Source: Leucoraja ocellata (Eukaryota). Taken from it: a stretch of DNA of 64,000 nucleotides. The DNA is taken from contig JAWMAR010000253.1 of the NCBI GenBank assembly GCA_036785375.1, positions 2,170,001-2,234,000 of the forward strand. The letters are read 5' to 3'. The translations under genes and the position numbers were made by a program. This document shows, in pieces, positions 2,331-64,000 of the stretch; positions within the stretch are counted from its first letter, which is position 1, and the number at the start of each line of letters is the position of its first letter. The notes under the pieces were generated by a model. That model saw only the letters and a list, made by a program, of their open reading frames with translations, was not told the DNA's origin and searched no databases.

Positions 2331-3917
2331 TGGTAGAGAAGGCAGGAGAATGGTGTTGAGAGTGAAAGAAAGATCCGCCACGATTGGATGGCAGAGTAGT
2401 CCCGAATGGCCTAATTATGCTCCTATGCCTAATGAACACTCCTTCGGTATATGATTTTATGAACACAATATCCTCCTTTCTCACTTGACGTGGTTCGTTG
2501 GTATTACTAGCATGCTTACCTCCGCGATAGGATTCGCAATGTATTTGCTTTATTTCACTCAATAAATTCCACTCTCGGCCTGTGTGAGGGGACCCTATCT
2601 ACCTTGACCTTTCTTTACACAAGAGCAGAAGACAGAAGAAGATCGTTGAGAGGCATTGTGATGCATGGTTGCCACTTCTTTCTGCATTTGAGTTGAGTTT
2701 ATTGTCACGTGTACAATGAAAAGCTATTTTGCGTGCTACCAGCCAGCGAATAGACCACATTAAGATAATCAAGCCATTCACAGTATACAGATACATGATA
2801 TAAAGGGGATAACATTTAGTGCAACATAAATCTGATTAAAGATAGTTCATGGGTCTTCAATGAAGTAGATGGTAGCTCAGGATCGCCTGTTGGGAGGATA
2901 GTTCGGTTGCCTGATAACATTTCTTTAATCCATGGCTAACAATGCAGATGCCTAAAACTTTTTTCATTGTTCCATGATTTTTTTTAAATATATATATTTT
3001 TGTAATTGTATTGTTATATATACAGTTGCTGTATTTTGATATTAAATCATGCCAATGCTGACATTTGATGAGGTTGTACCATTCAAGATTTAGCCTCACA
3101 GACCCAATTTGATTTGGGGAATATGTATGATGATATAATTTCCTGTGCATTGTGTAGAGTTGCTCTGAAGACAATTTGGTGCTGGGAGAGCCTCCTTCTC
3201 CAAATCTGAAGGCTCAAATTTGCTACCATGGCTTTGGCTCTAAGTCGCAGACAAAATTTGACCAAACACTAAATTTGACCAAACAGTCTGAAGAAGGATG
3301 TCGACCCGAAACATCACGGATTCCTTCTCTCCAGTGAAGCTGCATGTCCTGTTGAGTTACTCCAGCATTTTGTCCAAACAGTAGTTGTTCCACTGGTATT
3401 CCATCACTCCAGAGCAGTATACCGTGAAGAATTCCCAGAACAGTGTTGTTTCTGGGTGCTCTTTGTACAATCGACTGAGGCACATTTTATTGAAAGCCAC
3501 ACTGAACTAAAATGCTTTGTTGAATGAGAACACATTTGGGTTGGCAAAGAAATAGCCTTGCACAGATAAATAGCTTTGTTTAAAAAAAAGTTTACTTCGA
3601 AATTAAATAAAATCTAACTTCATGCACATAGGCACAATAGTTGAAACAAACAGGAAATGGTGGAAATACACAGCAGTTGACAGCTTTTAATCAACAAAAC
3701 CACAATCTGTAGCAGTGGTTTGCTTCACGGTGCTGTTGCTTGCTCGGTGTTCAGTAAGATCATGGCCCATCTGAATTCACCTTTACCCCTACTCTCCTTA
3801 GTTTGGAGATACAGCATGGAAACTATTCCTTCAGCCCACTGAGTTTGAATTCAAGTTCAAGTTCCCATTTATTCTCACATGCACTAATTAAGGTGCAGTG
3901 ATATTTGACTTACCCTA

Positions 3918-4905
3918 CATAGAAACATAGAAAATAGGTGCAGGAGGAGTCCATTCGGCCCTTCGAGCCAGCACCGCCATTCATTGTGATCATGGCTAAT
4001 CGTCCCCTATCAATAACCCGTGCCTGCCTTCTCCCCATATCCCTTGACTCCGCTAGCCCCTAGATCTCTATCTAACTCTCTCTTAAATCCATCCAGTGAC
4101 TTGGCCTCCACTGCCCTCTGTGGCAGGGAATTCCATAAATTCACAACTCTCTGGGTGAAAAAGCTTTTTCTCACCTCAACCTTAAATGACCTCCCCTTTA
4201 TTCTAAGACTGTGGCCCCTGGTTCTGGACTCGCCCAACATTGGGAATTTTTTTTTCCTGCATCTAGCTTGTCCAGTTCTTTTATAATTTTATATGTTTCT
4301 ATAAGGTAACCCCCTCATCCTTCTAAACTCCAGTGAATACAAGCCTAGTCTTTTCAATCTTTCCTCATATGACAGTCCCTCAATCCCAGGGATGAATCTC
4401 GTGAACCTACGCTGCACTGCCTCAATCACAAGGATGTCCTTCCTCAAATTAGGAGACCAAAACTGGACACAATACTCTAGATGTGGTCTCACCAGAGCCC
4501 TATACAACTGCAGAAGAACCTCTTTACTCCTATACTGAAATTCTCTTGTATGAAGGCCAACATTCCATTAGCTTTCTTCACTGCCTGCTGCACCTGTAAG
4601 CCAACTTTCAGTGACCGGTGTACAAGGACGCCTAGGTCTCGCTGCACCTCCCCATTACCTAACCTAACCCCATTGAGATAATAATCTGCCCCCTTGTTTT
4701 TGCCGTCAAAGTGGATAACCTCACATTTATCTATATTATACTGCATCTGCCACGCATCTGCCCACTCACTCAACCTGTCCTGGTCACCCTGCAACCTCCT
4801 AACATCCTCTTCACAGTTCGCACTGCCACCCAGCTTTGTGTCAGCCGCAAACTTGCTAGTGTTGCTCTTAATTCCCTCTTCCAAATCTTAATTCCCTCTT
4901 CCAAT
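3918..4905 (-). mobile_element. CR1 family B 3' fragment (frameshifted)
   Basis: SKFAADTKLGG...[13 protein letters not shown]...VVNLWNSLP; (TTTCTATG)n tail; ttaattccctcttccaa duplicated at the 5' junction. Confidence 0.9.
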
Positions 4906-5566
4906 ACAGCCATACCAAGTGAAAAGCAACAATACACACAGTGACATAAAATAAAATTGAACATAATCATCCACCACAGCATAATCCACATTCCTCACTG
5001 TGATGGAAGGTAATAAAGTGCAATCATCTTCCTCCTTTCTTCACCCGTGGTCGGGGTTGAACCCTCCGCACTCGCCACTGCCGACGGTCTGATGTCCGAA
5101 CCCCTCGCGTTGGGATGATCGAAACTCCGGGGTCGGCACGGATTGGAACACTCCACGGCGTGCTGCTCCCGTGTCGGCCTCTGCTTACTGGAGACCGCAG
5201 GCTTCATGGTGTTAAGGTCCACAGGCCTCGTGGTTGGAGCTCCTTCACAGGCGATCCTCAGCAGTGGATCGCAGGCTCCTTTGATGTTAAAGTCCACGAC
5301 GGAAACCACGGCATCACCTCCATGTCTCTATTTCACCGAGTTCCCTCCTTAGAAATTATGGTCTTGCTGTGTATTCCCAACATTTCCTACTTGAATTTCT
5401 CCCATTTGCCTTGGCCTGGTAAACAATGATCCAGTTGTAAACAAGTTCCAGGTCTCTGCCCCCAACAAACAAGCCATTCGGGTCGGTTATTAGTATTGCA
5501 GCAAGCAGTTTCAACGCAAAACGCAGACGTGCAATTCAAGGCGTAATTCAAGCTGGGGGTTAAATT

Positions 5567-5731
5567 TCATGTATCAGATGATAAACGGTGGGCAGAGAGC
5601 GCCTTTCCCTCATTCGGTCTTGCCCCCGCAGGGTCCAGATTGGGGTTGAATTTTATCTCATCGTATATCGTGGTAAGCTGTGCCTTTCGATTTTGCTCTC
5701 CTCCACTGGCATCCAGTTCACGTAAATGTCT
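5567..5731 (-). CDS. Terminal coding exon with ITSM (TTIYDEI)
   Basis: Acceptor ctttcctttcaagccacag|AGA, phase 0; RHLRELDASGGEQNRKAQLTTIYDEIKFNPNLDPAGARPNEGKALSAHRLSSDT*. Confidence 0.75.
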   Translation of the reverse strand, partial: RHLRELDASGGEQNRKAQLTTIYDEIKFNPNLDPAGARPNEGKALSAHRLSSDT

Positions 5732-8700
5732 CTGTGGCTTGAAAGGAAAGATTGTCAATGGACCGTGTGTTTAGATCTGGTGTTTATGTGACTCGGGCTT
5801 GTAATGCATGGTGCAGGGAATAGTGCAGAGGATAGTTTTAGAGTACAAGGCAGTTTACAGACATGAAGAGAGATCTTGGCACTGGGAGATATAGTTTTGT
5901 GCGGTTATAAATTCTGAAATGCCTGGTGAAAGAGATGATGTGTTCTGAAGTAACATAGAAGGAATTTTCTCATGTTTAGAAACATAGAAAATAGATGCAG
6001 GAGTAGGCCATTCGGCCCTTCGAGCCTGCCCCGCCATTCAATATGATCATGGCTTTAGTGGCTTTTGTACCACAAGACATGCAGAGCAAGGGCTGCAGAC
6101 TTCTGAGTGTTATGGTCATCTCTGTCTTGTGAACTCTGCAGGGAGTGTACTTTACGGTAATACAGAGTTCGCTATCATGGATGAAGCTTTGTGCTGGAGG
6201 ACTAGCTATGGGAAGGCTGCTGTCTCAGGGTCATCGACAGCAACTACCGTCTGGTAAAACTGGCTGCTCTATACAATGTTTTGGTTAAATTTCTGAGAAT
6301 CACTTGCGCACATTTTTATTCACACCAAGTGTCGCATGGAACCGCAGTGGACACAAAATGCTACCGCATCTACAGTCAGGGTCCAAACCACATTGAGTTG
6401 AACGATCTAAACCTCGCCTCGCTAAATGGACAAAGTATTTTGAACATTTTTTTAAATACTTTTATGTTCCATGACGACTTAGCCCCTGCTTGCCTGCAGT
6501 TTCTATTAGCCCTATAATCCCTCCAAAAACCGTCATCCTTGGCCTTGCGAACACCCACAATTTAATCTTTATTCTTGGCACATTCTATCCACTGTGAAAG
6601 CAACAACTTCTGGAATTCCTTCCCTCCCTTATTGAAACACTCGCTAAAATCTAACCATCTAAGCTTTTGTTATCTTTCAGTGACACAGTGACAGTTTTAG
6701 GTTATTAACACTATGATATTTCTTTGGACATTTCGCTACATTTTGGTTTTTAATTTTCCATACTCCATTCATCTTTTAACGGTCTTTCTGGTAACTCTTT
6801 CATTCAGCTTGGGTAATAAAGCCTCGTATTCAGAAGGTACACAAAAAAGCTGGAGAAACTCAGCGGGTGCAGCAGCATCTATGGAGCGAAGGAAATAGGC
6901 AACGTTTCGGGCCAAAACCCTTCTTCAGACTGATCGGGAGCGGGGACAAGAAAGGACAAAGGAGGAGGCGCCCGAAGGCTGGGGGATGGGAGGAGACAGC
7001 AGGGGGACTGAGGAAGGGGAGGAGACAGCAAGGACTAACAAAATTGGGAGAATTCGATGTTCCTGCCCCAGGATGCAGACTCCCCAAACGGAATATGAGG
7101 TGCTGTTCCTCCAATTTCCGGTGCTGCTCGCTGTGGCCATGGAGGAGACCCAGGACAGAGAGGTCGGAGACGGAGTGGGAGGGGGAGTTGAAGTGCTGAG
7201 CCACCGGGAGGTCAGCTTGGTTATTGCGGACCGAGCGGAGGTGTTCGGCGAAACGATCGCCCAACCTCCGCTTGGTCTCACCGATATAGATCTGCTGACA
7301 TCTAGAGCAGCGGACGCAATAGATGAGGTTGGAAGAGATGCAGGTAAACCTCTGTCGCACCTGGAACGATTGCTTGGGTCCTTGAACGGAGTCGAGGGGG
7401 GAGGTAAAGGGACAAGTGTTGCATCTCTTGCGGTTGCAAAGGAAAGTGCCCAGGGAGATGGTGGTACGAGAGGGAAGGGAAGAATTGACAAGGGAGTTAT
7501 GGAGGGAGCGGTCTTTGCAGAAGGCAGATATGGGGGGAGATGGGAAGATGTGGCGAGTGGTGGGGTCACGTTGGAGGTGGCGAAACTGACGGAGGATTAC
7601 TTTTTGTATGTGACGGCTGGTGGGGTGAAAGGTGAGGACTAGGGGGACTCGGCCCTTGTTGCGAGTGGGGGGATGGGGAGAGAGAGCAGTGTTGCGGGGT
7701 ATGGAAGAGACCCTGGTGCGAGCCTCATTTATGGTGGAGGAGGGGAACCCCCGTTCCCTGAATAATGAGGACATTTCAGATGTCCTGGTGTGGAACGCCT
7801 CATCCGTGGAGCAGATGCGGCGTAGACGGAGGAATTGGGAGTAGGGGATAGAGTCCTTACAGGAAGCAGGGTGGGAAGAAGTGTAGTCCAGATTCAGATC
7901 GTATTCAGATGTTAGTGCGGTAGTAGTAATGCCCAAATAATTAGATGAGATTGAAACGGGCGCGGTTAGATTCATGAGATCATGAACGCAGCCGAAACAC
8001 TTAACGTGCAACAGAGAGAGAGAGAGAACTATGAGAGAACAATTCCCAGGGAAGCAGAAGCAGAACTAGGAGCAAACTGTCAGAAAAGTTTAACTGCAAC
8101 AGAAGCTAAATGAGGAAGTGAGAAAACACATAAAAACAAATGTGGAAAGCCACAGAAATACAAATAGTATTACAACAAGGGTTAAACATTTGTGAAATGT
8201 GAGAACAATGGAGACAAAGGTAGAGCCACAAGGAATTGCGGATGTTGGAATCTTGAACAAAACACAAAAGTACTGAAGGAACTGGAGTGACAAAGGCATA
8301 TATGCAGCAATCTCATGGGATTGGATGGAATTTTTTCTGCTGATCATAATGACGAGCAGAATCAAACTGTATAAGAGTATCTCTGGAGAAGAGTCTCAAC
8401 CCGAAACGTCACCTATTCCTTTTCTCTACAGATGCTGCTTGACCCGCTGAGTTACTCCAGCATTTTGTATCCATCTTCAATATAAAGCCTCTCTTGCACC
8501 CCATCTAATCTGGCCTCCAGGGATTTGTGAAATTGCCCATAATGAGGCTCTTAGTGAATCAGGGATGAAACAACCCTTAATGACTTAATCACCCAAAAAC
8601 TCAACAACAAAAAAATGCCTTATTGGCTCAATCAATGGGTTCTGGGATTACATCATTTTTTTCAGTTATTTTTTCTGAATCTGGGCCTCACTGACAAAGC

Positions 8701-11700
8701 CCATCGTTAATTGCCCTTGAGAAGGTAGTGGAGAACTGCGTTCTTGTACAACAAATTGTCATTCCGAAACCTGCTTAAAAATTATCCACGTAAAGTGAGT
8801 CAGGAATCACAGATTGTTGGGACCAGAGAAGGGCAGGAGATTTCCATCTCAACAGGGTTTTTTTGGACCAGAATGTTTTTTTTATGACAATCATTACCAG
8901 AATTCGTTTTTTTTTAATATAAATTCCAGAATTTGTTCTTCCTTCTGGCACAATAATTAATTGAAAGAAAGGCAATAATCATTTTATGTCCCAACTATGT
9001 AAACTGGTTACCCTGGTTTGCCTGTGTAGCACAATGGTTATCAATTAGTATGAAGGCAATGGNNNNNNNNNNNNNNNNNNNNNNNNNNNNNNNNNNNNNN
9101 NNNNNNNNNNNNNNNNNNNNNNNNNNNNNNNNNNNNNNNNNNNNNNNNNNNNNNNNNNNNNNNNNNNNNNNNNNNNNNNNNNNNNNNNNNNNNNNNNNNN
9201 NNNNNNNNNNNNNNNNNNNNNNNNNNNNNNNNNNNNNNNNNNNNNNNNNNNNNNNNNNNNNNGTGGTGAATCTGTGGAACTCATTGCCACAGAGAGCTGT
9301 GGAGGCCAAGTCAGTGGATATTTTTAAGGCAGAGATAGATCATTTTTTGATTAGAATGGGTGTCATGGGTTGTGAGAAGGTAGGAAAATGGGATTAGGAG
9401 GCACAGATCAGCCACGATTGAATGGCGGAGTAGTCTCGATGGGCCGAATGGCCTAATTCTACTCCTAAAACGTGTGAAAAGTCTGACTGACGAGACAGCC
9501 ACAATGGGCATCCCTGCCAAGGTTCACCATATCCTCAGGCAATCATTCCCCCACCCATTGGTATTGTCACCTCGGTGCATCCATAGACCACCAGGGGAGA
9601 GGTATCCAGTTTCTGTCATTACAATCAAAGTTGCACATTGGATATTGGACAGACAGAGAATCATTTTCTCTCAAGAGTGTTTATTTGTCATATGAATCAG
9701 AAGCAACAAAATTCTTAAGCTGCAGCTTGACAAACACATTAGATGTAACAACACAAATAAATACCGGTATATAAAAAAATATTATTTACTTTAAGTAAAC
9801 TAATAAAAGCCTGTCTGAAACACATGTCTGAAGAAGGGTCTCGATTCAAAATGTCATCTATTCCTTTTCTCTATAGATGCTCTCTGACCACTTAATTACT
9901 CCAGCTTTTTGCGTCTAACTTTAGTAAAAAAATTAAGTATGTCGAGGGTCCATAGTAGTGCAAATTCCTGGTGTCGGGTGCTGAGGTCGGGTCATGCAAG
10001 GTGGTTCCTGTTCTTGTTTTCTTGGTTCTTGGTTTCTTGGTCCTCCAAAATATTCCAAATGGAATTTAAACTGGAGGTGGTGAAGGGAGGGATGAAAGGG
10101 TTGAAAGGGTGATGAGAAGAAGCTGTCCTTGAAACTGGAGGTAATGGTTCCCAGTCCTCTGCACCTCATATCATCAGAAATAAGCTAAGCATGGCGGAGT
10201 TCTGTTAGTCAAGGGAAAACAAAAGTGGGATTACTCTTTGCACCAGAGTCACCTCTGGGCAACATGCCAACCCAATCTAGTGAATTGACATTACGCTATT
10301 TGGTTTGAAACTCCAGAATCTTCGCTCCAAAGGATTTGTTCATCATCCAAAAATGTTGGAGTAACTCAGCGGGCAGGGAGAATCTCCGGTAAGAAGGAAT
10401 AGGTGATGTTTCAGGTCAAGACCCTTCTTGGGCTTGTACACGCTAGAATTTAGAAGATTGAAGGGGGGATCTTATAGAAACGTACAAAATTCTTAAGGGG
10501 TTGGACAGGCTAGATGCAGAAAGATTATTCCCGATGTTGGGGAAGTCCAGAACAAGGAGTCACAGTTTAAGGATAAGGGGGAAATCTTTTAGGACCGAGA
10601 TGAGAAAATCATTTTTTACACAGAGAGTGGTGAATCTCTGGAATTCTCTGCCACAGAAGGTAGTTGAGGCCAGTTCATTGACTATATTTGAGAGGGAGTT
10701 AGATGTGGCCCTTGTGGCTAAAGGGATCAGGGGGTATGGAGAGAAGGCAGGTACAGGATACTGAGTTAAATGATCAGCCATGATCATATTGAATGGCGGT
10801 GCAGGCTCGAAGGGCCGAATGGCCTACTCCTGCACCTATTTTCTATGTTTCTATGTTCACTGTGAAGAGGGACCTTGACCAAAACATCACCTATTCCTTT
10901 TCTCCAGAGATGCTGCCTGGCCCGCTGAGTTACTCAAGCATTTTGTGTCCATCTCCGTTGTCACCTAGCATCTGCAGTTCCTTCCTACACACCAGTGAAT
11001 TATCTGTGCTGGATGTAGAGGGAGAGTTACAGCAGCGTTGTAGCAGAGAAACTAGATCTAGCATCACACCTTTCAGCTTAGACAGCAAGAACAACAGAGA
11101 TGAGAGCAGATTTGATCAGTTGTAAAAGTTACATTCTGTTAGTGTCAACTATTGCAGAAAGAGCAGGAGATAAAACATGAAAGAGTTACTCTGAGCGTGG
11201 GAAAGAATGGTTTCACAGACTACGCGTTGAGTCTTTATACAATTTCACCCATGCTACCATGAGACAATAGGCAGAAAATGCTGGAGAAACTCAGCGGGAC
11301 AGGCAGCATCTCTGGACAAAAGGAACCAGTCTGAAGAAAGACCTCAACCCATTCCTTCTCTCCAGAGATGCTGCCTGTCCCGCTGAGTTACTTCAGCATT
11401 TTGTGCCTCTCTTTGGTTTAAACCAGCAGCTGCAGTTCCTTCCTACACAAGAGAGCATCTCTGGAGAAAAAGGATAGATGACATTTCGAATTAGGGTCCT
11501 ATCCCGAAACATCACCCATCTGTTCTCTCCAGAGATGCTGCCTGACCCACTGAGTTACCTCAGCATTTTATGTCTATCGGCAGCAGCTTACCTGGGCTTG
11601 CATTGGGTGGTACATAATTGAATAATCTTTTCTCATGTCCTATCCAACACGTGGGATGTAGATTTTCCCGCTGAGTTGCTCCAGCACTTTGTGACTATCT

Positions 11701-14700
11701 TTGGTATAAACCAGCATCTGCAGTTCCTTCCTACACACTAATGCCCCTGTCCCACTTAGGAAACCTGAACGGAGACCTCTGGAGACTTTGTGCCCCACCC
11801 AAGATTTCCGTGCGGTTCCCGGAGGTTTTTGTCAGTCTCCCTACTTGCTTCCACTACCTGCAACCACCTGAAACCTCCGGGAACCGCACGGAAACCTTGG
11901 GTGGGACGCAAAGTCTCCAGTGGTTTCCGTTCAGGTTTCCTAAGTGGGACAGGGGCATTAGGCTGCTGTTGATATGTGTGGAGCAGGGCATTTGGGATCA
12001 CTCAGTGGGAGAGAGGGTGCAGGGTCGGGAGATCGATGGGTAACTCAAGTAAGGTGGGGGGTAGAGAGCTTGTTCAGTGTTCAGGGTTGGTACCTGGAGA
12101 ATAAAGGGGGTGAGTTGCAAGGTGAAGAAGAGGCTGAATATCAGCACCTGACAGGGGCCCCACCTGCGTCTGAACCTATACAGGAAGGTATAGTTGAAGT
12201 CAATCAGAAGAAAGACGGACAGGTACTGTGAAAGCCTCTTGAAATGCAGCTGAAGATAGACTGGTGAAGCTGAATTCTGAAGGAGATCTCAAAGACTGCA
12301 AACCATTCTAAAGTGAGTCAACATGCCAGGAATGGTGTACGTTGGACGCCATAGGTATGCACATACCTGAGGTTCTTTGTGCATCCCACTGAAGATCGCC
12401 TAAGGAACTGGAAGAAGAAGCACAAACTTTGCAAAGCACCATTTTGAGGTCACAGAATAACATGAAAAACACAGCACACAGGATGGAACGTAGGCGTCTC
12501 CCTTCAAAGGCTTTCTTTGAAGATTTGTTCTGCAGAGAAGGTTGGTCGGTCTCTCCGTTTGTGTTTACCAGCAGACAAGGAGCTAAAGCCAAAATACGGT
12601 GACTAACATGAGCCGCCTTGTTGTGAAGGGCCATAACCTGGGATTAGACTGCATGGTTTAAGAAGAAGAATAGTCGAGTACCTGCCTTCATCGTGGTTTG
12701 GTTTTTTCTTCCAGTACATGCAGCCAATGCTAGCTAAGATGATAGCTCCCACCACAATTCCCGCAGTAATCAAGCCAATATGGAGTGCTTCCTGTTGCTT
12801 GACACCTGAAAAAGGATCAACATTCAACTGTGATTGCATTAGTGCGTTAATGCAGAAAAATATAAAATGTACTTTGCTCAAAAATGAGAAATGAAGCTGA
12901 ATGCACTGGTGTGCCGTCTTTTCATCTTTCATTTTATTATTTTTAATGTGTTTTCAAAGTATGTGTTAATGTTCTCTGGTTTGTTTTTTATGTGCGGGTG
13001 AGGGAGGGGGTCGGGGGGAACTTTTTTTCAGTCTCTTACCTTGCCGGAGATGCGGTTGTTTTCCGGATCGTATCTCCAGTCGCTCTGCGGCCCAACATCA
13101 TGGAGCTGGCGGCCTTGCTCGAGTGACTTTGACTTTGAGCCCCAACGTGGGGCCGTGGACTTACCATCGGAGCCTGTGATCCCTTGTGTGGAGGAGCATC
13201 GAGGAGCTCGCAGTCTCGGGTAGAGCCTGATGTCGGGAAGCTCCAAAGTCGCAGGAGGTTCGACCAGCCCCGACCCGGGGTCCGATCGCCCGGCACGGGG
13301 AAGCTGAGATCCCCCCGATGCGCGAGCTTGATCGTCCCTACGCGGAGGGCCGGCTGCCAGCTACGGGAGCCAAGATCGTCCCGACAACGGAAGGCTCGAG
13401 GCCCCCGATCGCAGGAGAACAAAGAATAGAAGAGATTGAACTTTTTTACACCTTCCATCACAGTGAGGAATGTGGAGGAGTCACTGTGGTGGATGTTTAT
13501 GTTCAGATGGATTTTGTATGTTTTGTTGCTTTTTATTTATATGACTGTACGGCAAATCAAATTCCTCGTATGTTGCAAAACATACTTGGCTAATAAAGTA
13601 TGATTATGATGATTACTATGAAGAAACTGTTCTTAAGGAGACCTGCAAGATCAAAATTGCAGCCTGAAGGGTCCCCACACTAAAAGTCACCTATCTATGT
13701 TCTACAGGGATGCTGCCTGACCCACTGGGTTTAGTTTAGTTTAGACCTACAGCGGGGAAACAGGCCCTTCGACCCAATGAGTCCGCACTGACCAGCGACC
13801 CCCCGCACACTAACGCTATGCCACACACAAGTTACAATTATACCAAGCCAAGTAACCTACAAACAAACCAATGCATCTTTGGAATGTGGGAGGAAACCAG
13901 AGATCCTGGAGAAAACGCACTCAGGTCACAGGGAGAACATACAAACTGTGTACAGATAAGCACCCGTAGTCAGGATCGAACCTGGGTCTCTGGCGCTGTG
14001 AGGCAGCAACTCTGCTGCTAGGCCACCATGCCACCCACTGTGCCGTTCCATCACCGTATCTTTTGTTAACCAGAATCTGCAGCTCTTTGCTTCTACATTT
14101 TGTCTGTCAAATTATAACTGGTTTAAACAGTGTATTGAACAATTCCATATCAAAGATTCGGCAACATTTTTACTAATTCACACTCCGGCTTACTAAATCC
14201 AAAAGTTTGAATTTCATTAGACTTTAGACATACAGCGTGGAAACAGGCCCTTCGGCCCAGCAAATCAACGGCAACCCATACACTAGCACGATCCTACAAA
14301 CTAAGGGCAATTTACAATTGCCATAGAGGGAGTACAGAGAAGGTTCACCAGACGGATTCCTGGGATGTCAGGACTTTCTTATGAAGAAAGACTGGATAGA
14401 CTCGGCTTGTACTAGCTAGAATTTAGAAGATTGAGGAGGGATCTTATAGAAACTTACAAAATTCTTAAGGGGTTGGTTGGACAGGCTAGATGCAGGAAGA
14501 TTGTTCCCGATGTTGGGGAAGTCCAGGACAAGGGATCACAGTTTAAGGATAAGGGGGAAATCTTTTAGGACCGAGATGAGAAAAATCATTTTTCACACAG
14601 AGAGTGGTGAATCTCTGGAATTCTCTGCCACAGAGGGCAGTTGAGGCCAGTTCATTGGCTATATTTAAGAGGGAGTTAGATGTGGGCCTTGTGGCTAAAG

Positions 14701-17301
14701 GGATCAGGGGGTATGGAGAGAAGGCAGGTACAGGATACTGAGTTGGATGATCAGCCATGATCATATTGAATGGCGGTGCAGGCTCGAAGGGCCGAATGGC
14801 CTCCTCCTGCACCTATTTTCTATGTTACTAGCATGATCCTACACACGAGGGACAATTTACAATTAACTTAAGCCATTTAACCTATAAACTTGCACGTCTT
14901 GGGAGTGTGGGAGGAAACCAGATCACCCAATGAAAACCCAGGCGGTCACAGTGAGAACGTGCAAACTCCATACAGACAGCACTATAGTCAGGATTGAATC
15001 CGGCTCTCTGGCGCTGTAAGGCAGCAACTCTACCGCTGCGCCACTGTGCCGCCATCTTTGTCCTCTTAGTTAATTTCACATTAGTTTTTTTGGTCGAGTT
15101 CAAGGCAATTGAAATTCTGCATTTGAAGATGCACGCATTGGAAAAAGTCAGTTGGCGAATTACAGAGATACTATTTCAACCCCAGCACTGAACCCAGGAA
15201 ATGATAAAGTCACTAATTTGAAAGCATGAAGTCAGTAAAAAGCAGTTATTGATAAGGGAAACTATCCTGTAAGCTAGTGTGAAAGATTCTCATTTCCAGA
15301 TCTCTGAGTCTGATTGTGATATAGTCAATCCAGTGTCACCAACAATTCACCCTTCTCAGAAGCAAGACCAGGGATCGCTGGTCGATACGGACACCGTGGG
15401 CCGAAGGGCCTTTTCCGTGCTGTATCTCTAAACTAAATTAAATTAAAAATTTATTAGTTCCAAATGATAATAATTTTGTACAAAAAAATGTTCTCTCCCA
15501 TCACTTGTGCCTTATGCCCAGTATCTATCCTCTAGCCCTGGAAACATCTGCCAATGGAAAAATCATCTTAAAGGCTGCTGACATTTTGCCCAGTGGCATA
15601 AAATATTCAGTGTTCTTCCCAACAACACTTTGAACTTCATGTGCATTAGAGAAATTTAGTTTAGAGATACAGTGCCCTTCGGCGCACCGAGTCTGAGCCA
15701 ACCAATAATCTCCGTACACTAGCACTATCCTACACTCCAGGGAAAATTTCCAATTTTTACCAAAGTCAAATTAACATACGAACAGGCTTTGCAGTATGAG
15801 AGGAAACTAGAGTACCCCGGGAAAAGATACACGGTCACGGAGAAAATGTACAAACTCCGTACAGACAATACTCGTAGTCAGGACCGAACCTGAGCCTCTA
15901 GCACTGTTAGGCAACAACTCTTCCGCTGTGGCACCATGCCACCCTGGTTGCACCAGGTTGTGAGAATTAGTTTATTTAAACATTCAACAATGGTACAATC
16001 AAGAGAGAACGGTGGAAAAAAGATTTCTGATAGTGTGCTTAGTGTGAAAAGATAAAGCCACAAACCTTCATGGGCAGGACAGAGCTGTGTTAGATCCACG
16101 CTCCGCGTCTCCTCACTAACAGGGTTCCCCACGGTGCAGTTGTACACACTGTTGTTGTTGGGTAGAGGTATGGAGAGTGCCAGCCTTCTCCCTTCGTCAG
16201 TCAGTATGTGCAACCCATCTGCCGTGACCTTGCCATCTCCTGACCACCAAGTGTAGACTGGCTCGGTGCCGTGCTCCAGTGAACACACCAAGCTAACGTT
16301 ACACACCCCTTCGGTGAAGGCTTCACTGATATCTATTACTGGTAATGACACTCGTTCTGTTTTAAAGAAAAACACAAATACAAGCCATGGAATAATAACA
16401 ATCAGAAGGTGCTAGCCATGAGTTTCCCACAAGAACATTAAGAGTAGAAGATTCTTTAGTTTAGTTTAGAGATGCAGTGTAGAAACAAGCCCTTCGACCC
16501 ACAGACTCCGCGCCCATCCCCGCACACGAGCACTATCCTACACACACTACGGACAATTCTCAAACTCTGTACAGACAAGTACCTGTAGTTTTAGTGCAAA
16601 CTCCTTCTCGTGATTTTACAAAATGAATTGTCCAGGTTACACTTTGCCACCAAAACTAGATCACAAGTAAACTCGTTATTAGCAGAGAAAGTTTAATGAC
16701 AGGTGGCCCTATCATCTTACAGAGAAGTCAGATGGCTTGGAGAACCCATCCTAATGCTCTGCCATTAATATTCAAACAGCAAATACTGGGGATGGGTTCC
16801 TAAATAAGCAAGGACTCCAACCCATGTAATGTTTCAGTACTCACCCTGCCCGTATAACCCACACACTTGGGCTCACATCGAAAGCCTTATCTTGATTTCC
16901 CCTTATATCTTTAAGTTCTTAATGATTGTTAGATTGGAAAATACACTGTTTTTTAAACTGAAATAGATTACCATAAATCTTCAGTTCTGTCACTTGTACG
17001 TGGACAGCCAGAGTCGTCCTTAAGTTCATTTCATATAGACCTTGATCATGTTCTGTTAGGTTCTGTATTTCCAGACTACAGTCCTTCAGGTTTAACCTGA
17101 TTCGCTGTTTGTTACAATGTATTGGATTGTTTTGAGTTTTCGTACATAATTGAACCTTTCCTGTTGTTGGTGAACTTTGGTAATCCCAAGTGAGGATTGA
17201 AATGTTTTCTCCTGAGATATATCCTGGTAACGTGACTGACTGTCCCAGTATCCCATTCACCAAGCGACGAGTGCCTGGTTTCCCAGCAGTCTGTCCCAGA
17301 C
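5567..17301 (-). CDS. CD2/SLAM-family immunoglobulin-superfamily receptor, spliced model of 7 exons (leader exon not located)
   Basis: IgV + IgC2 + TM + Tyr-motif tail; all six introns are GT-AG and junction phases 1,1,2,1,1,0 join into one open frame ending TGA at 5569-5567. Confidence 0.85.
6835..7890 (-). mobile_element. Penelope-like element 3' part (RT thumb plus GIY-YIG endonuclease) with terminal hammerhead motif
   Basis: SIPYSQFLRLRRICS; CNRKRCNTC; NLIYCVRCSRCQQIYIGETKRRLGDRFAEH; CTGAAGA-stem-GAAACGTT at 6928-6901. Confidence 0.92.
8898..8944 (-). CDS. Cytoplasmic micro-exon 3 (EGRTNSGIYIKKKRIL)
   Basis: Acceptor ctttctttcaattaattattgtgccag|AA, donor CTG|gtaatg, 47 bp, phase 1-0 bridging to the terminal exon; spans an A9 run. 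Confidence 0.6.
9063..9262. other. Assembly gap (200 N) inside the receptor gene; further gaps at 61579-61761 and 61842-61981
   Basis: Runs of N. Confidence 1.
10430..10856 (+). mobile_element. CR1 family B 3' fragment (representative; similar copies at about 14318-14827, 17465-17835, 18840-19338, 21815-22505, 30275-30700, 31667-31903, 32138-32403, 32855-33470, 36898-37270, 37580-38045, 38697-39255, 44875-45312, 47901-48287, 53228-53605, 53784-54308, 57995-58220, 59588-60060)
   Basis: Near-identical LDAGRLFPMLGKSRTRGHSLRIRG...GYGEKAGTGY coding end, 3' stem ggccgaatggcc and ttctatgt tail. Confidence 0.9.
11592..11639 (-). CDS. Cytoplasmic micro-exon 2 (GHEKRLFNYVPPNASP)
   Basis: Donor CAG|gtaagc, weaker acceptor gtgttggatag|GA, 48 bp, phase 1-1; unique island between repeats. 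Confidence 0.68.
11742..11957. mobile_element. PIF/Harbinger-like MITE family 1 (copies: 21988-22211; 33518-34663 split; 51460-51680; partial 48665-48727 and 54308-54436)
   Basis: Long terminal inverted repeats TGCCCCTGTCCCACTTAGGAAACCTGAACGG...; TWA flanks. Confidence 0.8.
12367..12407 (-). CDS. Cytoplasmic micro-exon 1 (SSLGDLQWDAQRTS)
   Basis: Strong acceptor cttcttcttccag|T, strong donor CAG|gtatgt, 41 bp, phase 2-1 as required by the TM exon. Confidence 0.82.
12682..12805 (-). CDS. Exon: transmembrane helix and basic stop-transfer
   Basis: Acceptor gatcctttttcag|GT, donor GCAG|gtactc, 124 bp, phase 1-2; IGLITAGIVVGAIILASIGCMYW-KKK. Confidence 0.9.
14880..15057 (-). mobile_element. tRNA-derived HE1-like SINE (copies or fragments at about 13730-14045, 15655-15945, 26412-26650, 28945-29152, 49003-49085, 53610-53785, 58395-58645, 63815-63960)
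   Basis: Pol III A box gtggcgcagcgg, B box gg(a/g)ttc(a/g)atcc; full copies end in a CR1-like gggcctgtttccgtgctgta plus (taaac)n tail. Confidence 0.8.
16066..16356 (-). CDS. Exon: IgC2 domain with four cysteines (CD2/SLAM type)
   Basis: Acceptor tttctttaaaacag|AA, donor GAAG|gtttgt, 291 bp, phase 1-1; ERVSLPVI...CNVSLVC...YTW...YNCTVGNPVS...LTQLC. Confidence 0.93.
16972..17301 (-). CDS. Exon: N-terminal IgV domain lacking the canonical B/F-strand disulfide
   Basis: Acceptor cttgtccttgtgtttcag|GT, donor TATG|gtaatc, 330 bp, phase 1-1; VNGILGQSVTLP...LTW...SLEIQNLTEHDQGLYEM...ELKIY. Confidence 0.93.
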
Positions 17302-43874: not shown

Positions 43875-43902
43875 GACGTTTCGAGTCGAGACCCTTCTTC
43901 AG
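43875..43902 (-). ncRNA. Minimal type I hammerhead ribozyme core (Penelope-type), representative copy with intact core
   Basis: CUGAAGA-A-GGGUC(UC)GACUC-GAAAC-GUC; palindromic ACGU stem III. Confidence 0.65.
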
Positions 43903-57516: not shown

Positions 57517-59454
57517 GGACTGGTGGAGAGAGAGAGTTACATAGAACGTATGAACAAAGACATCTGAATTGCTGAAGGAAAGGAGATACAGCCGGAATTA
57601 CCCAACCTGGTAAAACAAACACCAAACACCATCTGTTCAGTGTGTGTTTACATTGGATTTGTAGAACTCTTTGTACGTTCATGGAGGAGTAACTGACACA
57701 AAACCGACGATAGCCTGTGAGTCTGTTGCAAGGGAAAACATCTGCCCACAAACGGTCAGGATGTTGAGGTGTGGTTTATATGACTGATTATATGACTGAT
57801 TAACAAACGTTCACCAAAGATGCAGTTGGATGGTAGTAACGACCTGCAGTGGGTAAAAACAGGGGCATGAAAGACTGAAAACGCTGGAATTTAAAAAAAG
57901 ATTTCCCTCAGTTGCCAACTATTTTAATTCTCTTCACAATTCCCCAGGTTAGAATCATTCAGTGTGGAAACATGCCCTTCGGCCCAACTCGGCCACAGTT
58001 TAAGAATAAGGGGTCGGCCATTTAGAACGGAGACGAGGAAACACTTCTTCACACGGAGTTGTGAATCTGTCGAATTCTCTGCCTCAGAGGGCTGTGGAGG
58101 CCAGTTCTCTGGATACTTTCAAGAGAGAGCTAGATAGGGCTCTTAAAGATAGCGGAGTCAGGGGACATGGGGAGAAGGCAGGAACGGGGTACTGATTGGG
58201 GATGATCAGCCATGATCACATTCTTGGTTCTTGGTTTCTTGGTCCACCAAAATATTCCAAATGGAATTTAAACTGGAGGTGGTGAAGGGAGGGCTTAAGC
58301 CAGAAAGGGTTATTGGGAAGAAAGAGCTACTTTACATTGAATTGCGGTGTTGGCTCAAATGGCCTACACCTGCACTTATTGTCTATTGTCTATTTAGACT
58401 ATAGAGAGATACAGCATGGAAACAGGCCCTTCGGCACACCGGGTCCGCTCTGACTAGTGATCACCCTGTACACCAGCACTATCCCACACACAAGGGACAA
58501 TGTTACAACTGACCGAATCCAATTAACCGACAAACCTGCTCACCATTGGAGTGTGCGAGGACACCAGAGCACCCGGAGCAAACCCACACGGTGTTGGAGA
58601 GAACGTGCAAACTCCGTACAGACAGCACCCAAGGTCAGGATGGTTTAGAGTCAATTTAATCTCTAGATTATCTACTGTTATTTTTCTTGCTATGAGTTAC
58701 ATCCACCCTGAGACATCATACAAACTGTGAACATTAGAAACTGCAGATGGTTTACAAAGAAAATACACAAAGTGCTGGAGTAACTAGCGGGCCAGGCAGC
58801 ATCTCTGGAGAACATGGATAGGCGATATTTAGGGTCGGGACCCTTCTTCAGACGAATTATGGAGTGGGGTGTGGGGGAACGCAAGCTAGATGGGAGGAAT
58901 CATAGAGTAGGAACAGGCCCTTCGGCCCAACTCGCCCACACCAGCCTCATATCCCATCTAAACTAGTTAAATCTGCATGCGTTTGGCCCATATCCCTCTA
59001 AACCCGTCCTATCCATGTACCTGTCTGTTTCTTAAACATTGCGATAGTACCAGCCTCAACTACCTCCTCCAACAGCGCATTCCATACACCCACCACCCCT
59101 TGTGTAAAAAAGGTACCCTTCAGGTTCCTATTAAATGTTTCTCCCTCACCTTAAAAGGAGGGGCAGGATGAAACAGGGCTGTAAATAGGTGAATGGGGGG
59201 AGGTACGTTTTGATGGGCAGCTGCTTGGACAACGGCCAGACGTGACCAAACAGAAGGTGTGAGACAAAAGGATTGAAGATTGTGAATTATGAAGCTAGAT
59301 GAGGGAATGTAGGTAGAGGGGAAAGGGAGAATAGTTGTGAGTTCAGTGGGGCAGTGGGGGGGTAGGGGAGAAAGGGGAGGGTGGTATGGCAGAGAAAGGG
59401 GATGAGGGTTTTACAGAGGTTACCTAAGATTGGAGAATTCAGTGCTCATACAGA

Positions 59455-60345: not shown

Positions 60346-60546
60346 TTAATACAGAATATGAGATGGTGGTCGTCCAGTTTGCATGTGGCATCACTCTGGT
60401 AATGAAGGAGGGACAGGACAGAAAGGTAGGTAGGGGAATGGGATGGGGAGTTAAAATGGTTAGCAATGGGAGACCCAGGAAGCCTTAGCAGACCGAGCGC
60501 ATTATTCAGAAAAACAGCAACAAGCAGACGCTTGATCTCACTGATG

Positions 60547-61224
60547 TTCTTGGTTCTTGGTTTCTTGGTCCTCCAAAATATTCCAAATGGAATTTAAACT
60601 GGAGGTGGTGAAGGGAGGGCTTAAGGCAGAAATGGTTATTGGGAAGAAAGAGCTACTTTAAATTTAGTTGCATCTGGTTGGGTAACTATAGTTGGGTGGA
60701 GATTATTCCATGCTTTAATTGTGCGGGGGAAGAACGAATTGCTGTACACATCTGTCTTTGTAGCTGGGATCACAAATTGGATCGAATGCCCTCGTCTGCT
60801 CCTAATTGGTTTGGGTTTGGTGTAGGTCTTGTAGTCTATGTCGAGCTGACCATTTAACATTTTGTAAAAACAGGTCAAACGGTGAGCTTCACGTCTGTCT
60901 TGGAGAGGGTTCCACCCCAACCAGAGAATTCAGAATGTTTAAGAAGGAACTGCAGATGCTGGAGAATCGAAGGTACACAAAAAAGCTGGAGAAACTCAGC
61001 GGGTGCAGCAGCATCTATGGAGCGAAGGAAATAGGCAACGTTTCTGAAGAAGGGTTTCGGCCCGAAACGTTGCCTATTTCCTTCGCTCCATAGATGCTGC
61101 TGCACCCGCTGAGTTTCTCCAGCTTTTTTGTGTACCAGAGAATTCAGAAGTTTGGTGACACTCGCTTCTGTCTCATAGGTGTTAGTAACAAATCGAGCTG
61201 CTTGTCTTTGGACACATTCGATGT
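60547..61224 (-). mobile_element. Daphne/L2-group-like LINE 3' fragment, split by the Penelope palindrome (tail-only copies at about 10005-10110 and 58221-58335)
   Basis: IECVQRQAARFVTNTYETEASVTKLLNSL / GWNPLQDRR...RGHS...YSNSFFPRTIKAWNNL; (AAGAACC)n tail; gatgt at both ends. Confidence 0.75.
60936..61136. mobile_element. Palindromic non-autonomous Penelope terminal unit with a 15-bp target-site duplication
   Basis: Perfect 73-bp inverted arms 60972-61044 / 61064-61136; ccagagaattcagaa at 60921-60935 and 61135-61149. Confidence 0.85.
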
Positions 61225-61393: not shown

Positions 61394-61981
61394 CTGTGGG
61401 AGGAAACAGAGGCTGCTATTTTTCCTGGTATTGTTCCTCATTGTTCCTCCAGAGGAGGGTGTAGGAGCCAAAAACAGTGACAATCAGATTCAGGAGCAGA
61501 CATTTTCCTACAACCATCAGGCTATTGCACACTAAACATTCCAATAAGCTCCAAACTATTTAAATTTGGGGGCATTGCNNNNNNNNNNNNNNNNNNNNNN
61601 NNNNNNNNNNNNNNNNNNNNNNNNNNNNNNNNNNNNNNNNNNNNNNNNNNNNNNNNNNNNNNNNNNNNNNNNNNNNNNNNNNNNNNNNNNNNNNNNNNNN
61701 NNNNNNNNNNNNNNNNNNNNNNNNNNNNNNNNNNNNNNNNNNNNNNNNNNNNNNNNNNNNNTAATATGCACAAACATACCATAAATATATATCTATATAT
61801 ATCATAAATGTATATCTATATATATCATAAAGATATGTATTNNNNNNNNNNNNNNNNNNNNNNNNNNNNNNNNNNNNNNNNNNNNNNNNNNNNNNNNNNN
61901 NNNNNNNNNNNNNNNNNNNNNNNNNNNNNNNNNNNNNNNNNNNNNNNNNNNNNNNNNNNNNNNNNNNNNNNNNNNNNNNNN

Positions 61982-62342
61982 CCAATGTCCAACCTCTCTG
62001 TCCTGGGTCTCCTCCATGGCCAGAGCGAGCAACACCGGAAATTGAAGGAACAGCACCTCATATTCCGCTTGGGGAGTCTGCATCCTGGGGGCATGAACCA
62101 AAGATCTTTGGCATGAACATTGAATTCTCCCAATTTTGTTCGTCCTTGCTGTCTCCTCCCCTTCCTCCGCCCTCCTGCTGTCTCCTCCCACTCCCCAGCC
62201 TTCGGGCTCCTCCTCCTTTTTTCCTTTCTTCTCCCCCCCCATCAGTCTGAAGAAGGGTCTCGACACGAAACGTCGCTTATTTCATTCGCTCCATAGATGC
62301 TGCTGCACCCGTTGAGTTTCTCCAGCATTTTTGTGTACCTTA
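61982..62342 (+). mobile_element. Penelope-like element 3' fragment next to a gap
   Basis: LSVLGLLHGQSEQHRKLKEQHLIFRLGSLHP matches the 6835-7890 copy; hammerhead-like core at 62247-62274. Confidence 0.88.
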
Positions 62343-64000
62343 GTGTTGAGCTGCTGGGCTGTGGGCTGGGCTGGGCGCTGTGCTGCAAGTGCTCGTCTAC
62401 AGCAGAGCGGAGGCGAAAAAATAACTGTGTGTCGGGGGATGGCTGGGGGAGGTGGGTGGCGACATGACTCGTGGAAAACTGTGTCACTGCCTGTTGACAG
62501 CAGCTGCTATAATCCAGAGCCGGTGGGAGGGGGGGGGGCACGAGCAACGTCATCACCGGCCAGCGGTTAGATTTGGGGGAAAAAAATCAGATTTGTGAAC
62601 GATTTTTGTAAAAAACTCAGGGAATTATTTAACCAAATTTACAGATGTGTGGATTTTTGAAATCACGATGCAAATATCAACTGGAATGTGTAAAAATGTG
62701 ACTAATTCTGTTATGACAAGTAGAACAGGCAGTGTTATAACCACTGGAGAAAATCCCCTCACCCACCTAGCCTGTAAGCTTGTGACAACCCCACCACACC
62801 CATCAAAGTCAGCACCCTGAAAGTGCTACTGAGTTTATCTCTTTGCTGAAACCTTCCTTGTCAATGAGACAAAAATGAAGGGCAGACACTGTCATCTTGA
62901 GCAATACACAAAGTGCTGGTGGAACTCAGTGGGTCAGGCAGCGTCCGTGGAGAGATGTTTCGAATTTGGACCCGTCTTCAGTCTGATTGTAGTAGGGAGG
63001 AGGGGAAGTGAAAGGTGTATAAATCAGGTGGGGCCAGGACAAAGCCTGGAAGAATTGACAGGTGGATAAACACAAAATGCTGGAGTAACTGAACGGGACT
63101 GGCAGCATCTCTGAAGAGAAGGAATGTGTCTGAAAAAGGGTCTCGATCCGAAACGTCACCCATTCTTTCTCTCCTGAGATGCTGCGGCTCCACTGAGTTA
63201 CTCCAGCATTTTCTGTCTATCTTCAGTATAAACCAGCATCTGCAGTTTCTTCCTACATGAGTGACAGGTGGATACTGGTAAGGGAGGGGTTTCTGTAGGA
63301 AGGAACTGCAGATGTGTAGGAAAGAACTGCAGATGCTGGTTTAAAACGAAGGTAGACATGAAATGCTGGAGTAACTCAGTGGGTCAGGAAGCATCTCTGG
63401 AGAGAAGGGGTGACGTTTTGGGTCGACATCCTTCTTCAGACTGACACCAGGAGAACATCTAACTTCAAATCACCCTTGCTGTCCCTCTCTCTTCATCCCT
63501 CCCCATCCCAGTTCTCTGACCAGCCTTACTGTCTCTGACTCTATTCCTTCTCTCCAGAGATGCTGCCTGTCCCTCTGAGTTACTCCAGCATTTTGTGTCT
63601 TTCTTTGGTTTACACCAGCATCTGCAGTTCCTTCCTACACTAGTGATAGTGGATACAGGTGAAGGTGGGGGTTGATGGGTAGAGGTTACAAGATTAAAAG
63701 GGGGAAAAGTCTGTCAGTTAAGGAGAGAATTTGGGTGAAATGTAAAGCCAGGGTGAGTGGTGTGGGGATGGGAGATGATTGGGGAAGAGATGTGGGGACA
63801 TCAGCCATTCATTTGTGGGCAGCACGGCAACGCAGCAATAGCGTTGCTACCTCACCGCGCCAGAGACCCGGGTCCGATCCTGACCACGGGTGCTGGCTGT
63901 ATGTACGAGTGTGTACTTTCTCCCTGTGACTTGCATGGGTCACCTCCTCCAGAGGTTAATTAGTTTCTGTTTTAAAAAAAAATGTTAATTGTACCTTTAT

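Follow-up and report, generated by a model that had tools for sequence, protein, structure and literature searches.

Dispersed ends of Penelope-like elements carrying a minimal hammerhead motif in a 64-kb window of a skate genome

A receptor gene and scattered ends of Penelope-like elements

The window, by which we mean the whole 64-kb stretch of skate DNA analysed, contains a SLAM-like Ig receptor gene on the minus strand (5570..17302), with V (17302-16973), C2 (16357-16064) and TM (12806-12687) exons and a last exon at about 5739-5570; its signal-peptide exon was not located. Between the TM exon and the last exon lies a 1.1-kb 5'-truncated Penelope-like element (PLE), and the hammerhead copy at 6928 is the end of this element, not a short unit. 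Its intronic position on the sense strand of the gene agrees with the original prediction. The truncated ORF (7061..7980, minus strand) comprises the thumb/C-terminal part of the reverse transcriptase (RT), a CX4CxxC linker (C175-x4-C180-x2-C183) and a GIY-YIG-type endonuclease (EN) with CCHH, and the arrangement of RT followed by a C-terminal GIY-YIG domain with CCHH, as in EN+ PLEs, was established by alignment. A CX2-5CxxC linker between RT and EN is a Neptune feature, common to Nematis and Naiad (PMC8557442). The ORF product was 57-62% identical to shark/ray PLE-like proteins and 44% identical to a sea-cucumber GIY-YIG protein, and its homologues bear PF00078/PF01541. A Pfam search with the ORF gave no match; its RT core has been truncated away, and no full-length PLE or PLE RT core was found in the window. 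The ORF is followed on the same strand by a pyrimidine-rich 3' UTR/pLTR of subfamily A (6929..7060), which ends in an acceptor-like CAG just before the hammerhead core, by the hammerhead itself (6899..6930), and by the 3' part of the pLTR (6832..6898), which stops at the short (tail-less) end.

An HMM search of the window yielded 41 family segments totalling 3,882 nt (6% of the window), and an early version of the HMM found none in the reversed window. Most units were 72-83% identical to the PLE 3' end at 6830-7980, and the copies at 61044/61045 were 99-100% identical to it. A copy of the hammerhead motif was found at all 16 positions cited in the original prediction, with C3 of three copies 1-2 nt away, at 18355, 58851 and 63439. 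The proposed Penelope derivation was borne out by the PLE 3' ends of the units, several of which are joined to GIY-YIG remnants: such remnants lie directly upstream of copies 6928 and 62247, and weaker ones upstream of 18355 and 63449. The location of the hammerhead in a pLTR downstream of the PLE ORF was clear at 6928 and 62247 and weak at 18355.

The truncated subfamily A end at 61985..62341 (plus strand; endonuclease C-terminus, 3' UTR and hammerhead 62247-62274) was 86% identical to the 6928 element over 357 nt, with an endonuclease profile E of 1.5e-10. A truncated end of a different subfamily (18227..18668, minus strand) has a weak endonuclease C-terminus (E 0.05), its own 3' UTR, a tail and a CpG-decayed hammerhead (18355-18328, minus strand) with ACAU and a broken stem II. 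Solo units were seen at 3284..3373 (plus strand; 90 nt, starting at the hammerhead 5' edge, with core 3288-3315 and, on either side, a target duplication of 14 nt with one mismatch) and at 43811..43919 (minus strand; hammerhead 43902-43875, 9-nt target duplication), while the fragment at 44107..44148 (minus strand; C3 44138) has a broken stem II and ends after the cleavage site. Units with changed cores lie at 8377..8486 (plus strand; C3 8383, core A6 -> G, antisense in a SLAM-like intron), 9823..9927 (plus strand; C3 9828, decayed G12 and palindrome) and 58736..58857 (minus strand; C3 58851, changed G12, decayed tail).

Other copies stand head to head. The young inverted pair at 60936..61135, whose left arm has the tail and whose right arm bears hammerhead 61044-61071, is flanked by a 16-nt target duplication at 60920 and 61134, and folds as one long hairpin that buries GAAAC-GUU. 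In the pair at 19438..19742, which has a 9-nt target duplication, the right arm carries a 90-nt UTR, hammerhead 19614-19641 and a tail. The pair at 63066..63259, joined in helix-I register, has a hammerhead (63130-63157) with G8 -> A and a 13-nt target duplication, and is nested in an older PLE 3' UTR; the older PLE end that hosts nested insertions (62874..63062, minus strand; core 62981-62954) has no helix I. At 63312..63640, a minus arm with hammerhead 63439-63412 and tail is paired with a plus arm that holds the PLE ORF end and UTR, its hammerhead deleted. The pair at 46878..47071 (hammerhead 46976-47003, A13 -> G) has a 10-nt duplication with one mismatch, and at 47362..47643 an older minus-strand PLE end holds a plus-strand unit (47522-47643) in its UTR, with a 7-nt duplication. 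Head-to-head segments were also found at 43114..43625 (43185-43114, minus; 43522-43625, plus, core 43528), 10347..10991 (10429-10347, minus; 10856-10991, plus; a LINE fragment between them), 45534..45786 (decayed) and 32656..32811 (core-less). The cluster at 11266..11737 consists of a pair at 11266-11449, with its junction in helix-I register and its core partly deleted, a pair at 11454-11583 and a segment at 11653-11737, and at 30161..30797 an inverted arm (30214-30161) accompanies a unit (C3 30240) that a LINE fragment interrupts at about 30278-30698.

Core, stems and predicted folding of the hammerhead

The published consensus of the PLE minimal hammerhead (min-HHR) is CUGANGAH-G...C-GAAAN-palindrome-UH (PMC4209133 Fig. 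S3). With at most one mismatch, a pattern written from it matched the window 14 times, four of them exactly, while shuffles gave a mean of 0.01 matches and 0/100 shuffles reached 14; scanning bacterial and archaeal genomes for an exact DNA pattern gave no match. An Rfam search of the window returned no hammerhead family at E up to 1, and its miRNA and psbJ matches were rejected as sub-gathering scores lying on inverted pairs or a palindromic element. The long hairpins of inverted PLE ends mimic microRNA precursors, which is a warning for annotation.

The copies have the core CUGANGA...GAAA...UH of the PLE minimal type I hammerhead, and all 11 invariant core bases were kept in 9 of the 16 cited copies and in 10 of the 24 core-spanning copies; N7 is U in copy 46976 only, and A or a variant in the others. 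Helix II contains G10.1-C11.1 and leaves one base unpaired next to A9, on its 3' side; it was paired in 87.5% of cells among 18 window copies, and G10.1-C11.1 was G-C in 12/12 copies (8 from the window and 4 from relative loci). In place of helix III, ACGU is the majority palindrome (15.1-16.1); its A and U are invariant (18/18), while its CpG has decayed in many copies, with 24/38 bases retained. These data upheld the predicted minimal type I hammerhead in which an ACGU palindrome replaces helix III. The full core together with a 4-bp stem II, a 2-bp stem I and ACGU was seen in only one of the 24 core-spanning copies, 6928-6901, for which the sequence predicts a cut between 6901 and 6900. Subfamilies A and B differ by U-G versus U-A in stems I and II and by C17 versus U17, and all these differences keep the fold.

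Among the findings that were to count against the original prediction were a family consensus with no stem I and a core no more conserved than its flanks. In the window both doubts were partly justified: helix I has 2 bp, closed by U-A or U-G, with covariation not above shuffles, and the core was only slightly more conserved than the flanks (175/190 vs 830/969; Fisher p=0.019, column-permutation p=0.07). Across distant PLE relatives, in contrast, both doubts were clearly removed. A hammerhead of the same length was present about 120-150 nt after the ORF match at six of seven related PLE loci, the seventh match having no ORF end. In four scored loci the core was 10-11/11 identical, compared with 13-22/52 in the 3' flanks, and both pairs of helix I, which has 3-6 bp in the relatives, covary against them. 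The alignment of 8 window and 4 locus copies had 14 double-change cells, a number that 0/500 shuffles reached in a test resting on about three to four independent lineages. A same-place hammerhead with covarying stems in distant relatives indicates that, as judged from sequence, the skate motif is a genuine PLE hammerhead at the family level. An extended helix I (2 bp, a 2x2 loop and 2 bp more) was rejected because it brought no energy gain and no covariation, its outer pairs being present in 11/18 and 9/18 copies. A search of elasmobranch proteins reading through the hammerhead gave one zebra-shark protein with a compatible C-terminal peptide, and one from the little skate whose reading agrees with that of 6928; this was set aside as too indirect a source for helix I.

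The motif is closest to the metazoan PLE min-HHR (Cervera and De la Pena 2014, PMC4209133), and in particular to the Neptune motif of Acropora digitifera, with which it shares the CUGANGA core, the extra base between 9 and 10.1, G10.1-C11.1, the GAAAC-GU-H palindrome and a 4-bp stem II with tetraloop. The position in the pLTR after the ORF, and the occurrence mostly as dispersed singles or as opposite-strand pairs 100-700 bp apart, are also alike. However, the skate helix I of 2 bp is shorter than the 3 bp of Acropora and at the lower limit of the published table (2-6), and the host is a skate, whereas the supplement of that paper yielded no entry from a shark or a skate.

It is possible, if on balance doubtful, that cleavage has been lost even in the master elements and that the motif is kept as a splice, promoter or RT-recognition signal, which would be compatible with the origin proposed below. 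Besides the short helix I, the hammerhead fold of the intact copy was predicted at -4.5 kcal/mol against a minimum of -10.0, and its double hammerhead at -7.1 against -30.3, the downstream pyrimidine run competing with the core; moreover, PLE insertion of the anole in vitro was unimpaired by hammerhead mutants. However, these energies take no account of tertiary contacts or of assistance by proteins, the anole ribozyme was active only when its protein was present, 2-bp helix I variants have been published for Drosophila virilis, Culex and Oikopleura, and the fold is kept between subfamilies A and B.

The intact copy lies in the sense strand of the SLAM-like gene and belongs to a young subfamily, but that it cleaves the pre-mRNA and tunes expression is most improbable. 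The other three sense-strand segments between mapped exons have no core and copy 18355 is broken, so the transcript offers no cis partner; published monomers did not cut, and one intact copy in 24 is the expectation for a young insertion. An effect on the receptor gene is unlikely.

Ends and junctions of the copies

The 3' ends of the 41 segments fell into 16 at +84..+100, 15 at +120 or beyond, one between and nine shorter, and the two 3' end sites about 35 nt apart are the PLE 'tail'. There were 13 head-to-head pairs against a null mean of 6.1, in a comparison where the null keeps midpoints and is biased by overlapping arms, and where the greedy rule mis-paired two loci. Target duplications scoring >=8 were found at 6 of 19 loci (0.1 expected), the locus ends having been set by hand following an initial inspection, and one of these positives (6828-8486) joining arms of different subfamilies; the other 13 loci had no strong target duplication. 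The window shows the inverted arms, optional 30-40 nt tail and target duplications of EN+ PLEs (Penelope/Poseidon, Neptune; PMC8557442, PMC3846280, PMC11167929), which likewise have 5' truncation, a tail often on one arm only, duplications of 7-16 nt and junction microhomology. Unlike those insertions, most in the window are shorter than 350 nt, and no direct-repeat (partial tandem) copy or full-length element accompanies them; a direct pLTR pair flanking a full ORF was absent from the window, which has 5'-truncated copies only, as expected for truncated insertions. CpG positions were mismatched in 50/176 cases and other positions in 256/2004; the CpGs of the copies decay as in neutral DNA.

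The labels 'retrozyme-like' and 'non-autonomous family' were not supported, the copies being structured as truncated or inverted PLE ends with no tandem hammerhead repeat. A true non-LTR retrozyme, in which tandem hammerhead repeats yield circular RNA and the dispersed units are monomers, is very improbable here. According to a preprint (bioRxiv 10.64898/2026.07.22.740005), pLTR-related retrozymes with many dispersed monomers occur in vertebrates including one cartilaginous fish, and the skate units resemble metazoan non-LTR retrozymes (that preprint and PMC7229834) in their type I hammerhead, short non-coding form and pLTR kinship, but differ in having no tandem copies and no canonical hammerhead and in having ends set by PLE tail sites. 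A hammerhead core is absent from all 67 tandem-repeat rows of the window, the 64-kb window contains no two consecutive tandem units with a complete hammerhead and no tandem or circular-permutation organisation, and the same-strand neighbours 43902/44138 and 62981/63439 have unrelated spacers. The hammerhead is minimal, with a 2-bp helix I and no helix III, and not of the canonical type I with loop 1-loop 2 contacts.

At the 5' side, 17 of the 41 alignments begin within nine positions before C3, in 11 of these without a visible UTR, and most short copies have no recognisable upstream PLE body. This clustering is sharper than random truncation would suggest. At the abutting inverted junctions, the main arm starts within 5 nt of C3 in 4/4 examined, and the fold-back is exactly in helix-I register in two of the four, both of which have lost an essential part of the core. 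An accumulation of 5' ends at the cleavage site (+28; 6/41 ends at +26..+33) was not established, because an internal deletion and a LINE break account for two of the six.

A dedicated SINE bounded by the hammerhead (about 90-135 nt with an optional inverted arm), dependent on PLEs and copied in trans, is distinctly unlikely to account for most short copies. The 5' ends just before C3, the starts of the abutting main arms and the solo 3288 unit, bounded by its duplication right at the hammerhead 5' edge, are what such a SINE would give; translation from the ATG at +49 runs into TAA in 5/9 translated non-A tail-bearing copies but stays open in subfamily A, and pLTRs can be mobilised in trans (PMC3846280). 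However, no fewer than three unrelated 3' UTRs lead into similar 3' ends, two or three of these UTRs coming after a GIY-YIG C-terminus, and the similarity among short copies does not exceed that among other copies (mean pairwise difference 25%). Since the UTRs upstream vary from one subfamily to another, the halt of alignments at C3 is an ascertainment effect.

Proposed origin and part played by the hammerhead

The repeats are mostly ordinary: broken-off PLE tail ends with the usual minimal hammerhead, nearly always decayed. They are very probably leftovers of several related endonuclease-bearing PLE subfamilies, probably of the Neptune clade, whose pLTR carries a minimal hammerhead of predicted activity. 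In the active element this hammerhead would lie about 130 nt after the ORF, a position seen in the window copies, and in a tandem PLE transcript weak cleavage after GUC/GUU would be expected of it, either in dimeric form or assisted by protein. The RT/endonuclease of the element would nick DNA and prime reverse transcription from either of two internal positions some 35 nt apart, which, by analogy with PMC11167929, may give the two 3' ends. Synthesis would usually stop early, often at the hammerhead, and fold-back on 2-3 nt of microhomology would often produce the head-to-head inverted arm, as the structures suggest. Dispersed copies, whether single, inverted or mutated, would then decay neutrally and almost certainly do not cut. 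Against this origin stand the sharp onset of many alignments just before C3, the short copies with no recognisable PLE body upstream, the absence of a full-length element from the window and the 13 loci with no strong target duplication.

That the hammerhead sets the stop and fold-back point of skate PLE reverse transcription is a tentative and rather unlikely idea. Fold-back in helix-I register would place the start of the inverted arm at the cleavage site or close to it, and this arm would then provide a long helix I. If this held genome-wide, inverted insertions would record ribozyme folding or cleavage in vivo, a hammerhead-bounded SINE-like class would be defined, and stronger ribozymes could be built and then purged by the host from transcribed DNA. 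Since copies are so numerous in skates, junction statistics would offer an inexpensive way of asking whether insertion is shaped by the ribozyme.

Inverted arms, tails and dispersed single min-HHRs have already been described for PLEs, and the hammerhead class has been reported from fishes, coelacanth and frogs. We found no paper on PLE hammerheads in cartilaginous fishes, although one chondrichthyan was screened for retrozymes in the preprint. For annotation, a very common skate repeat is identified as PLE ends with a minimal hammerhead.

The 5' start of many short copies adjoins the conserved acceptor-like CAG, and copies 58851 and 47450 have no CAG in the right register. The pLTR of Drosophila virilis Penelope (PMC2377424, PMC4209133) also has a 2-bp helix I, although it differs from the skate motif in possessing a small helix III and in the bulge of its helix II. 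Its intron ends at the 5' side of helix I, where the skate element has its predicted acceptor-like CAG.

Hammerhead motif and its relatives

The hammerhead motif was recovered in the window by each of three approaches (regular expression, profile HMM, covariance model). The original prediction had placed it at 16 positions, and a copy was present at every one of them, with three positions shifted by 1-2 nt. A pattern based on the published consensus gave 14 matches with at most one mismatch, against 0.01 expected. The extended HMM identified 41 segments (3,882 nt in total), and the first HMM returned none from the reversed window. A further, strongly decayed 3' unit with a tail (8225-8320, minus strand), head-to-head with the 8383 copy, was missed by the HMM. 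Copies are named by the window position of C3 of the core, from which offsets are counted. The subfamily A copies (6928, 61044/61045 and 62247) were 1-11% apart, and the mean difference among the other copies was 25%. Subfamily A is young and tied to the open reading frame of the Penelope-like element (PLE).

The motif opens with GU, the 5' strand of helix I, and continues with CUGAAGA, one additional A, stem II (4 bp, capped by a tetraloop), GAAA, CGU, C/U and AC/GC; this order agrees with the published consensus (PMC4209133, Fig. S3). Covariation in 18 window copies was not above that of shuffles, 342 of 500 of which reached the score. In the 19 copies spanning the core and downstream sequence, non-CpG identity was 175/190 in the core vs 830/969 in the flanks (p = 0.019 by Fisher test, 0.07 by column permutation). 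Support for a hammerhead from the window copies alone is weak, but that from relatives outside the window is stronger. In a scan of genome contigs, relatives with 43-50% identity were found encoded at seven loci (L001-L007); these loci, filed in MAG records, are evidently eukaryotic DNA. These contigs, which carry eukaryotic PLE ORFs and hammerheads in records of bacterial MAGs, are probably host contamination. A hammerhead of the same length lay about 120-150 nt past the ORF match in six of the seven loci; in the seventh, the match stopped short of the ORF end. Four of the six were scored against the skate motif, giving 10-11/11 for the core, 4-5/12 for stem II and loop, and 13-22/52 for the 3' flank. 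When eight window and four locus copies were aligned, double changes were found in 14 cells, a number reached by none of 500 shuffles, in a sample of about three to four lineages with two near-identical loci. Stem II was also predicted independently by RNAalifold from these 12 copies. The motifs of L007 and L002-L005 almost match that of Acropora Neptune (PMC4209133). Helix I has 2 bp in the skate, the lower limit of the range in the published table (PMC4209133), vs 3-6 bp in the relatives. In L002-L005 the core reads CCGA in place of CUGA, and another hammerhead, with a 7-bp stem II, is present in L004 at 499.

No description of a PLE hammerhead in cartilaginous fishes was found in listings from a mostly open-access literature. 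The word Penelope was missing from the main text of the little skate genome paper, and no shark or skate names were present in the two published supplements examined. The skate motif adds to an already known hammerhead class of PLEs, described in two reviews as widespread and of unknown role (PMC6155905, PMC7761336).

Units as probable ends of Penelope-like elements

The original prediction had called the units retrozyme-like. A retrozyme is by definition an array of two or more tandem units that each contain a hammerhead (bioRxiv 10.64898/2026.07.22.740005), and PMC7229834 likewise sets canonical tandem motifs apart from minimal PLE motifs. The hammerhead core was absent from all 67 tandem-repeat rows of the 64-kb window, and the units of this stretch fall outside that definition. 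The units are very probably ordinary PLE ends. At least three pyrimidine-rich UTRs, unrelated to one another, precede similar 3' ends, and endonuclease C-termini accompany them at 61985 (E 1.5e-10), 18668 (E 0.05) and 63449 (by eye). The 3' ends were bimodal, with 16/41 at +84 to +100, 15/41 at +120 or beyond (+120 being the point where the model stops and flanks diverge), one between and nine shorter. These two classes correspond to the optional 30-40 nt tail of PLEs (PMC11167929, PMC8557442, PMC3846280). Head-to-head pairs numbered 13 vs a strand-shuffled mean of 6.1 (0/5000 shuffles reached 13), with a null biased by overlapping arms and two of the 13 pairs mis-assigned. Target duplications scoring at least 8 were found at 6 of 19 loci whose ends were set by hand, one of them doubtful, vs 0.1 expected; two further loci scored 7 and 11 showed none.

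At the 5' edge, 17/41 alignments started at -9 to -1, 11 of them without a recognisable upstream UTR, and this clustering is in part ascertainment. The core 5' boundary was marked independently by the solo 3288 unit and by all four abutting junctions examined. Two of these junctions were in helix-I register (63130 directly, 11331 after correction for its 12-nt deletion) and two showed microhomologies of 2-3 nt; these numbers, like those for the 5' edge, are small and come from windows picked after inspection. In 6/8 longer copies with unrelated UTRs, CAG occupied -4 to -2 after a pyrimidine tract ranking in the top 0.1-4% of 4,140 YAG sites (6929-6932, 18356-18359, 19610-19613, 44139-44142, 62243-62246 and 62982-62985). 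This acceptor-like signal is not independent evidence, because the entire UTR is pyrimidine-rich. The placement of the CAG resembles that in D. virilis Penelope, where an intron ends at helix I (PMC4209133, PMC2377424).

The family's anatomy and position, its covariation with relatives, the inverted arms, both kinds of 3' end, the duplications and the decay were all demonstrated. By analogy with known PLE biology, the element's protein would nick DNA and start synthesis internally, and synthesis would terminate early and then fold back on microhomology. Weak cleavage, assisted by dimerisation or protein, would take place in tandem transcripts only.

In subfamily A the frame from ATG at +49 ran through the tail without a stop, and an in-frame TAA was present in 5/9 other tail-bearing copies (cf. 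19663-19742, 60936-61016). The insertions at 47645, 63260 and 63642 lie in older PLE 3' UTRs or sequence like them, at sites that resemble one another (CCACCT-R-TCACT-like), which suggests possible homing into the family's own terminal repeat (pLTR), comparable with the anole PLE that nicks its own junction (PMC11167929).

Cleavage competence of the copies

All 11 core bases were kept in 10/24 core-spanning segments, and every element was kept in one (6928-6901). In 28 non-A copies, mismatches occurred at 50/176 CpG positions vs 256/2004 other positions, and the palindrome CpG was not spared (24/38 retained); the decay of the copies is therefore neutral. In folding-energy models, which leave out tertiary contacts, intact copy 6928 reached -4.5 kcal/mol in the hammerhead fold, where the minimum was -10.0; for the double hammerhead the corresponding values were -7.1 and -30.3 kcal/mol. 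Of ten folds compared with shuffles, only one was clearly better, and an inverted arm drove it. The near-palindrome TCAG-T-CTGA at the core start dominates dimer folding. In the young pair 60936-61135, GAAAC-GUU was buried in a long helix, and no inverted pair can give rise to a same-sense dimer. No intact sense partner for the 6928 copy was found in the SLAM-like transcript. Monomers of minimal PLE hammerheads were uncut and dimers weakly cut (PMC4209133), and in the anole PLE, cleavage by the hammerhead needed the element's protein, and the hammerhead was not required for insertion in vitro (PMC11167929). Loss of cutting by the master ribozyme is a real, though the less probable, possibility.

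Host gene and neighboring repeats

The Ig V exon of the minus-strand SLAM-like gene (17302-16973) showed 83-93% identity to SLAM-like proteins of three skates. It is followed by C2 (16357-16064), transmembrane (12806-12687) and last (about 5739-5570) exons; a leader exon was looked for and not found. Eleven family segments, four in sense orientation, lie between the mapped exons. Little-skate paralogues use two reading frames in the last exon, one giving a short tail and the other a longer one that includes the tyrosine motif TIYDEI, which suggests possible alternative splicing of the cytoplasmic tail.

The ORF at 7980-7061 encodes the C-terminal part of a PLE RT and a GIY-YIG endonuclease with 57-62% identity to shark and ray proteins, and carries a CCHH motif and a CX4CxxC linker. 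Such a linker is given for Neptune and Nematis in PMC8557442, and the window PLE may belong to the Neptune clade. A GIY-YIG fragment of another PLE (60345-60545, minus strand) ends before any hammerhead.

A separate 200-nt palindromic MITE-like element with terminal inverted repeats occupies 11748-11951, with related pieces near 22100, 34560, 51450-51610 and 54340; this element produced a spurious MIR820 match. LINE fragments dominate the window (694-2598, 56135-57775, 20070-23413 and 52172-52732) and include ORFs with RT, a 511-nt inverted pair (98%) and a zf-RVT remnant. Two LINE fragments split hammerhead units and are therefore younger than those units.
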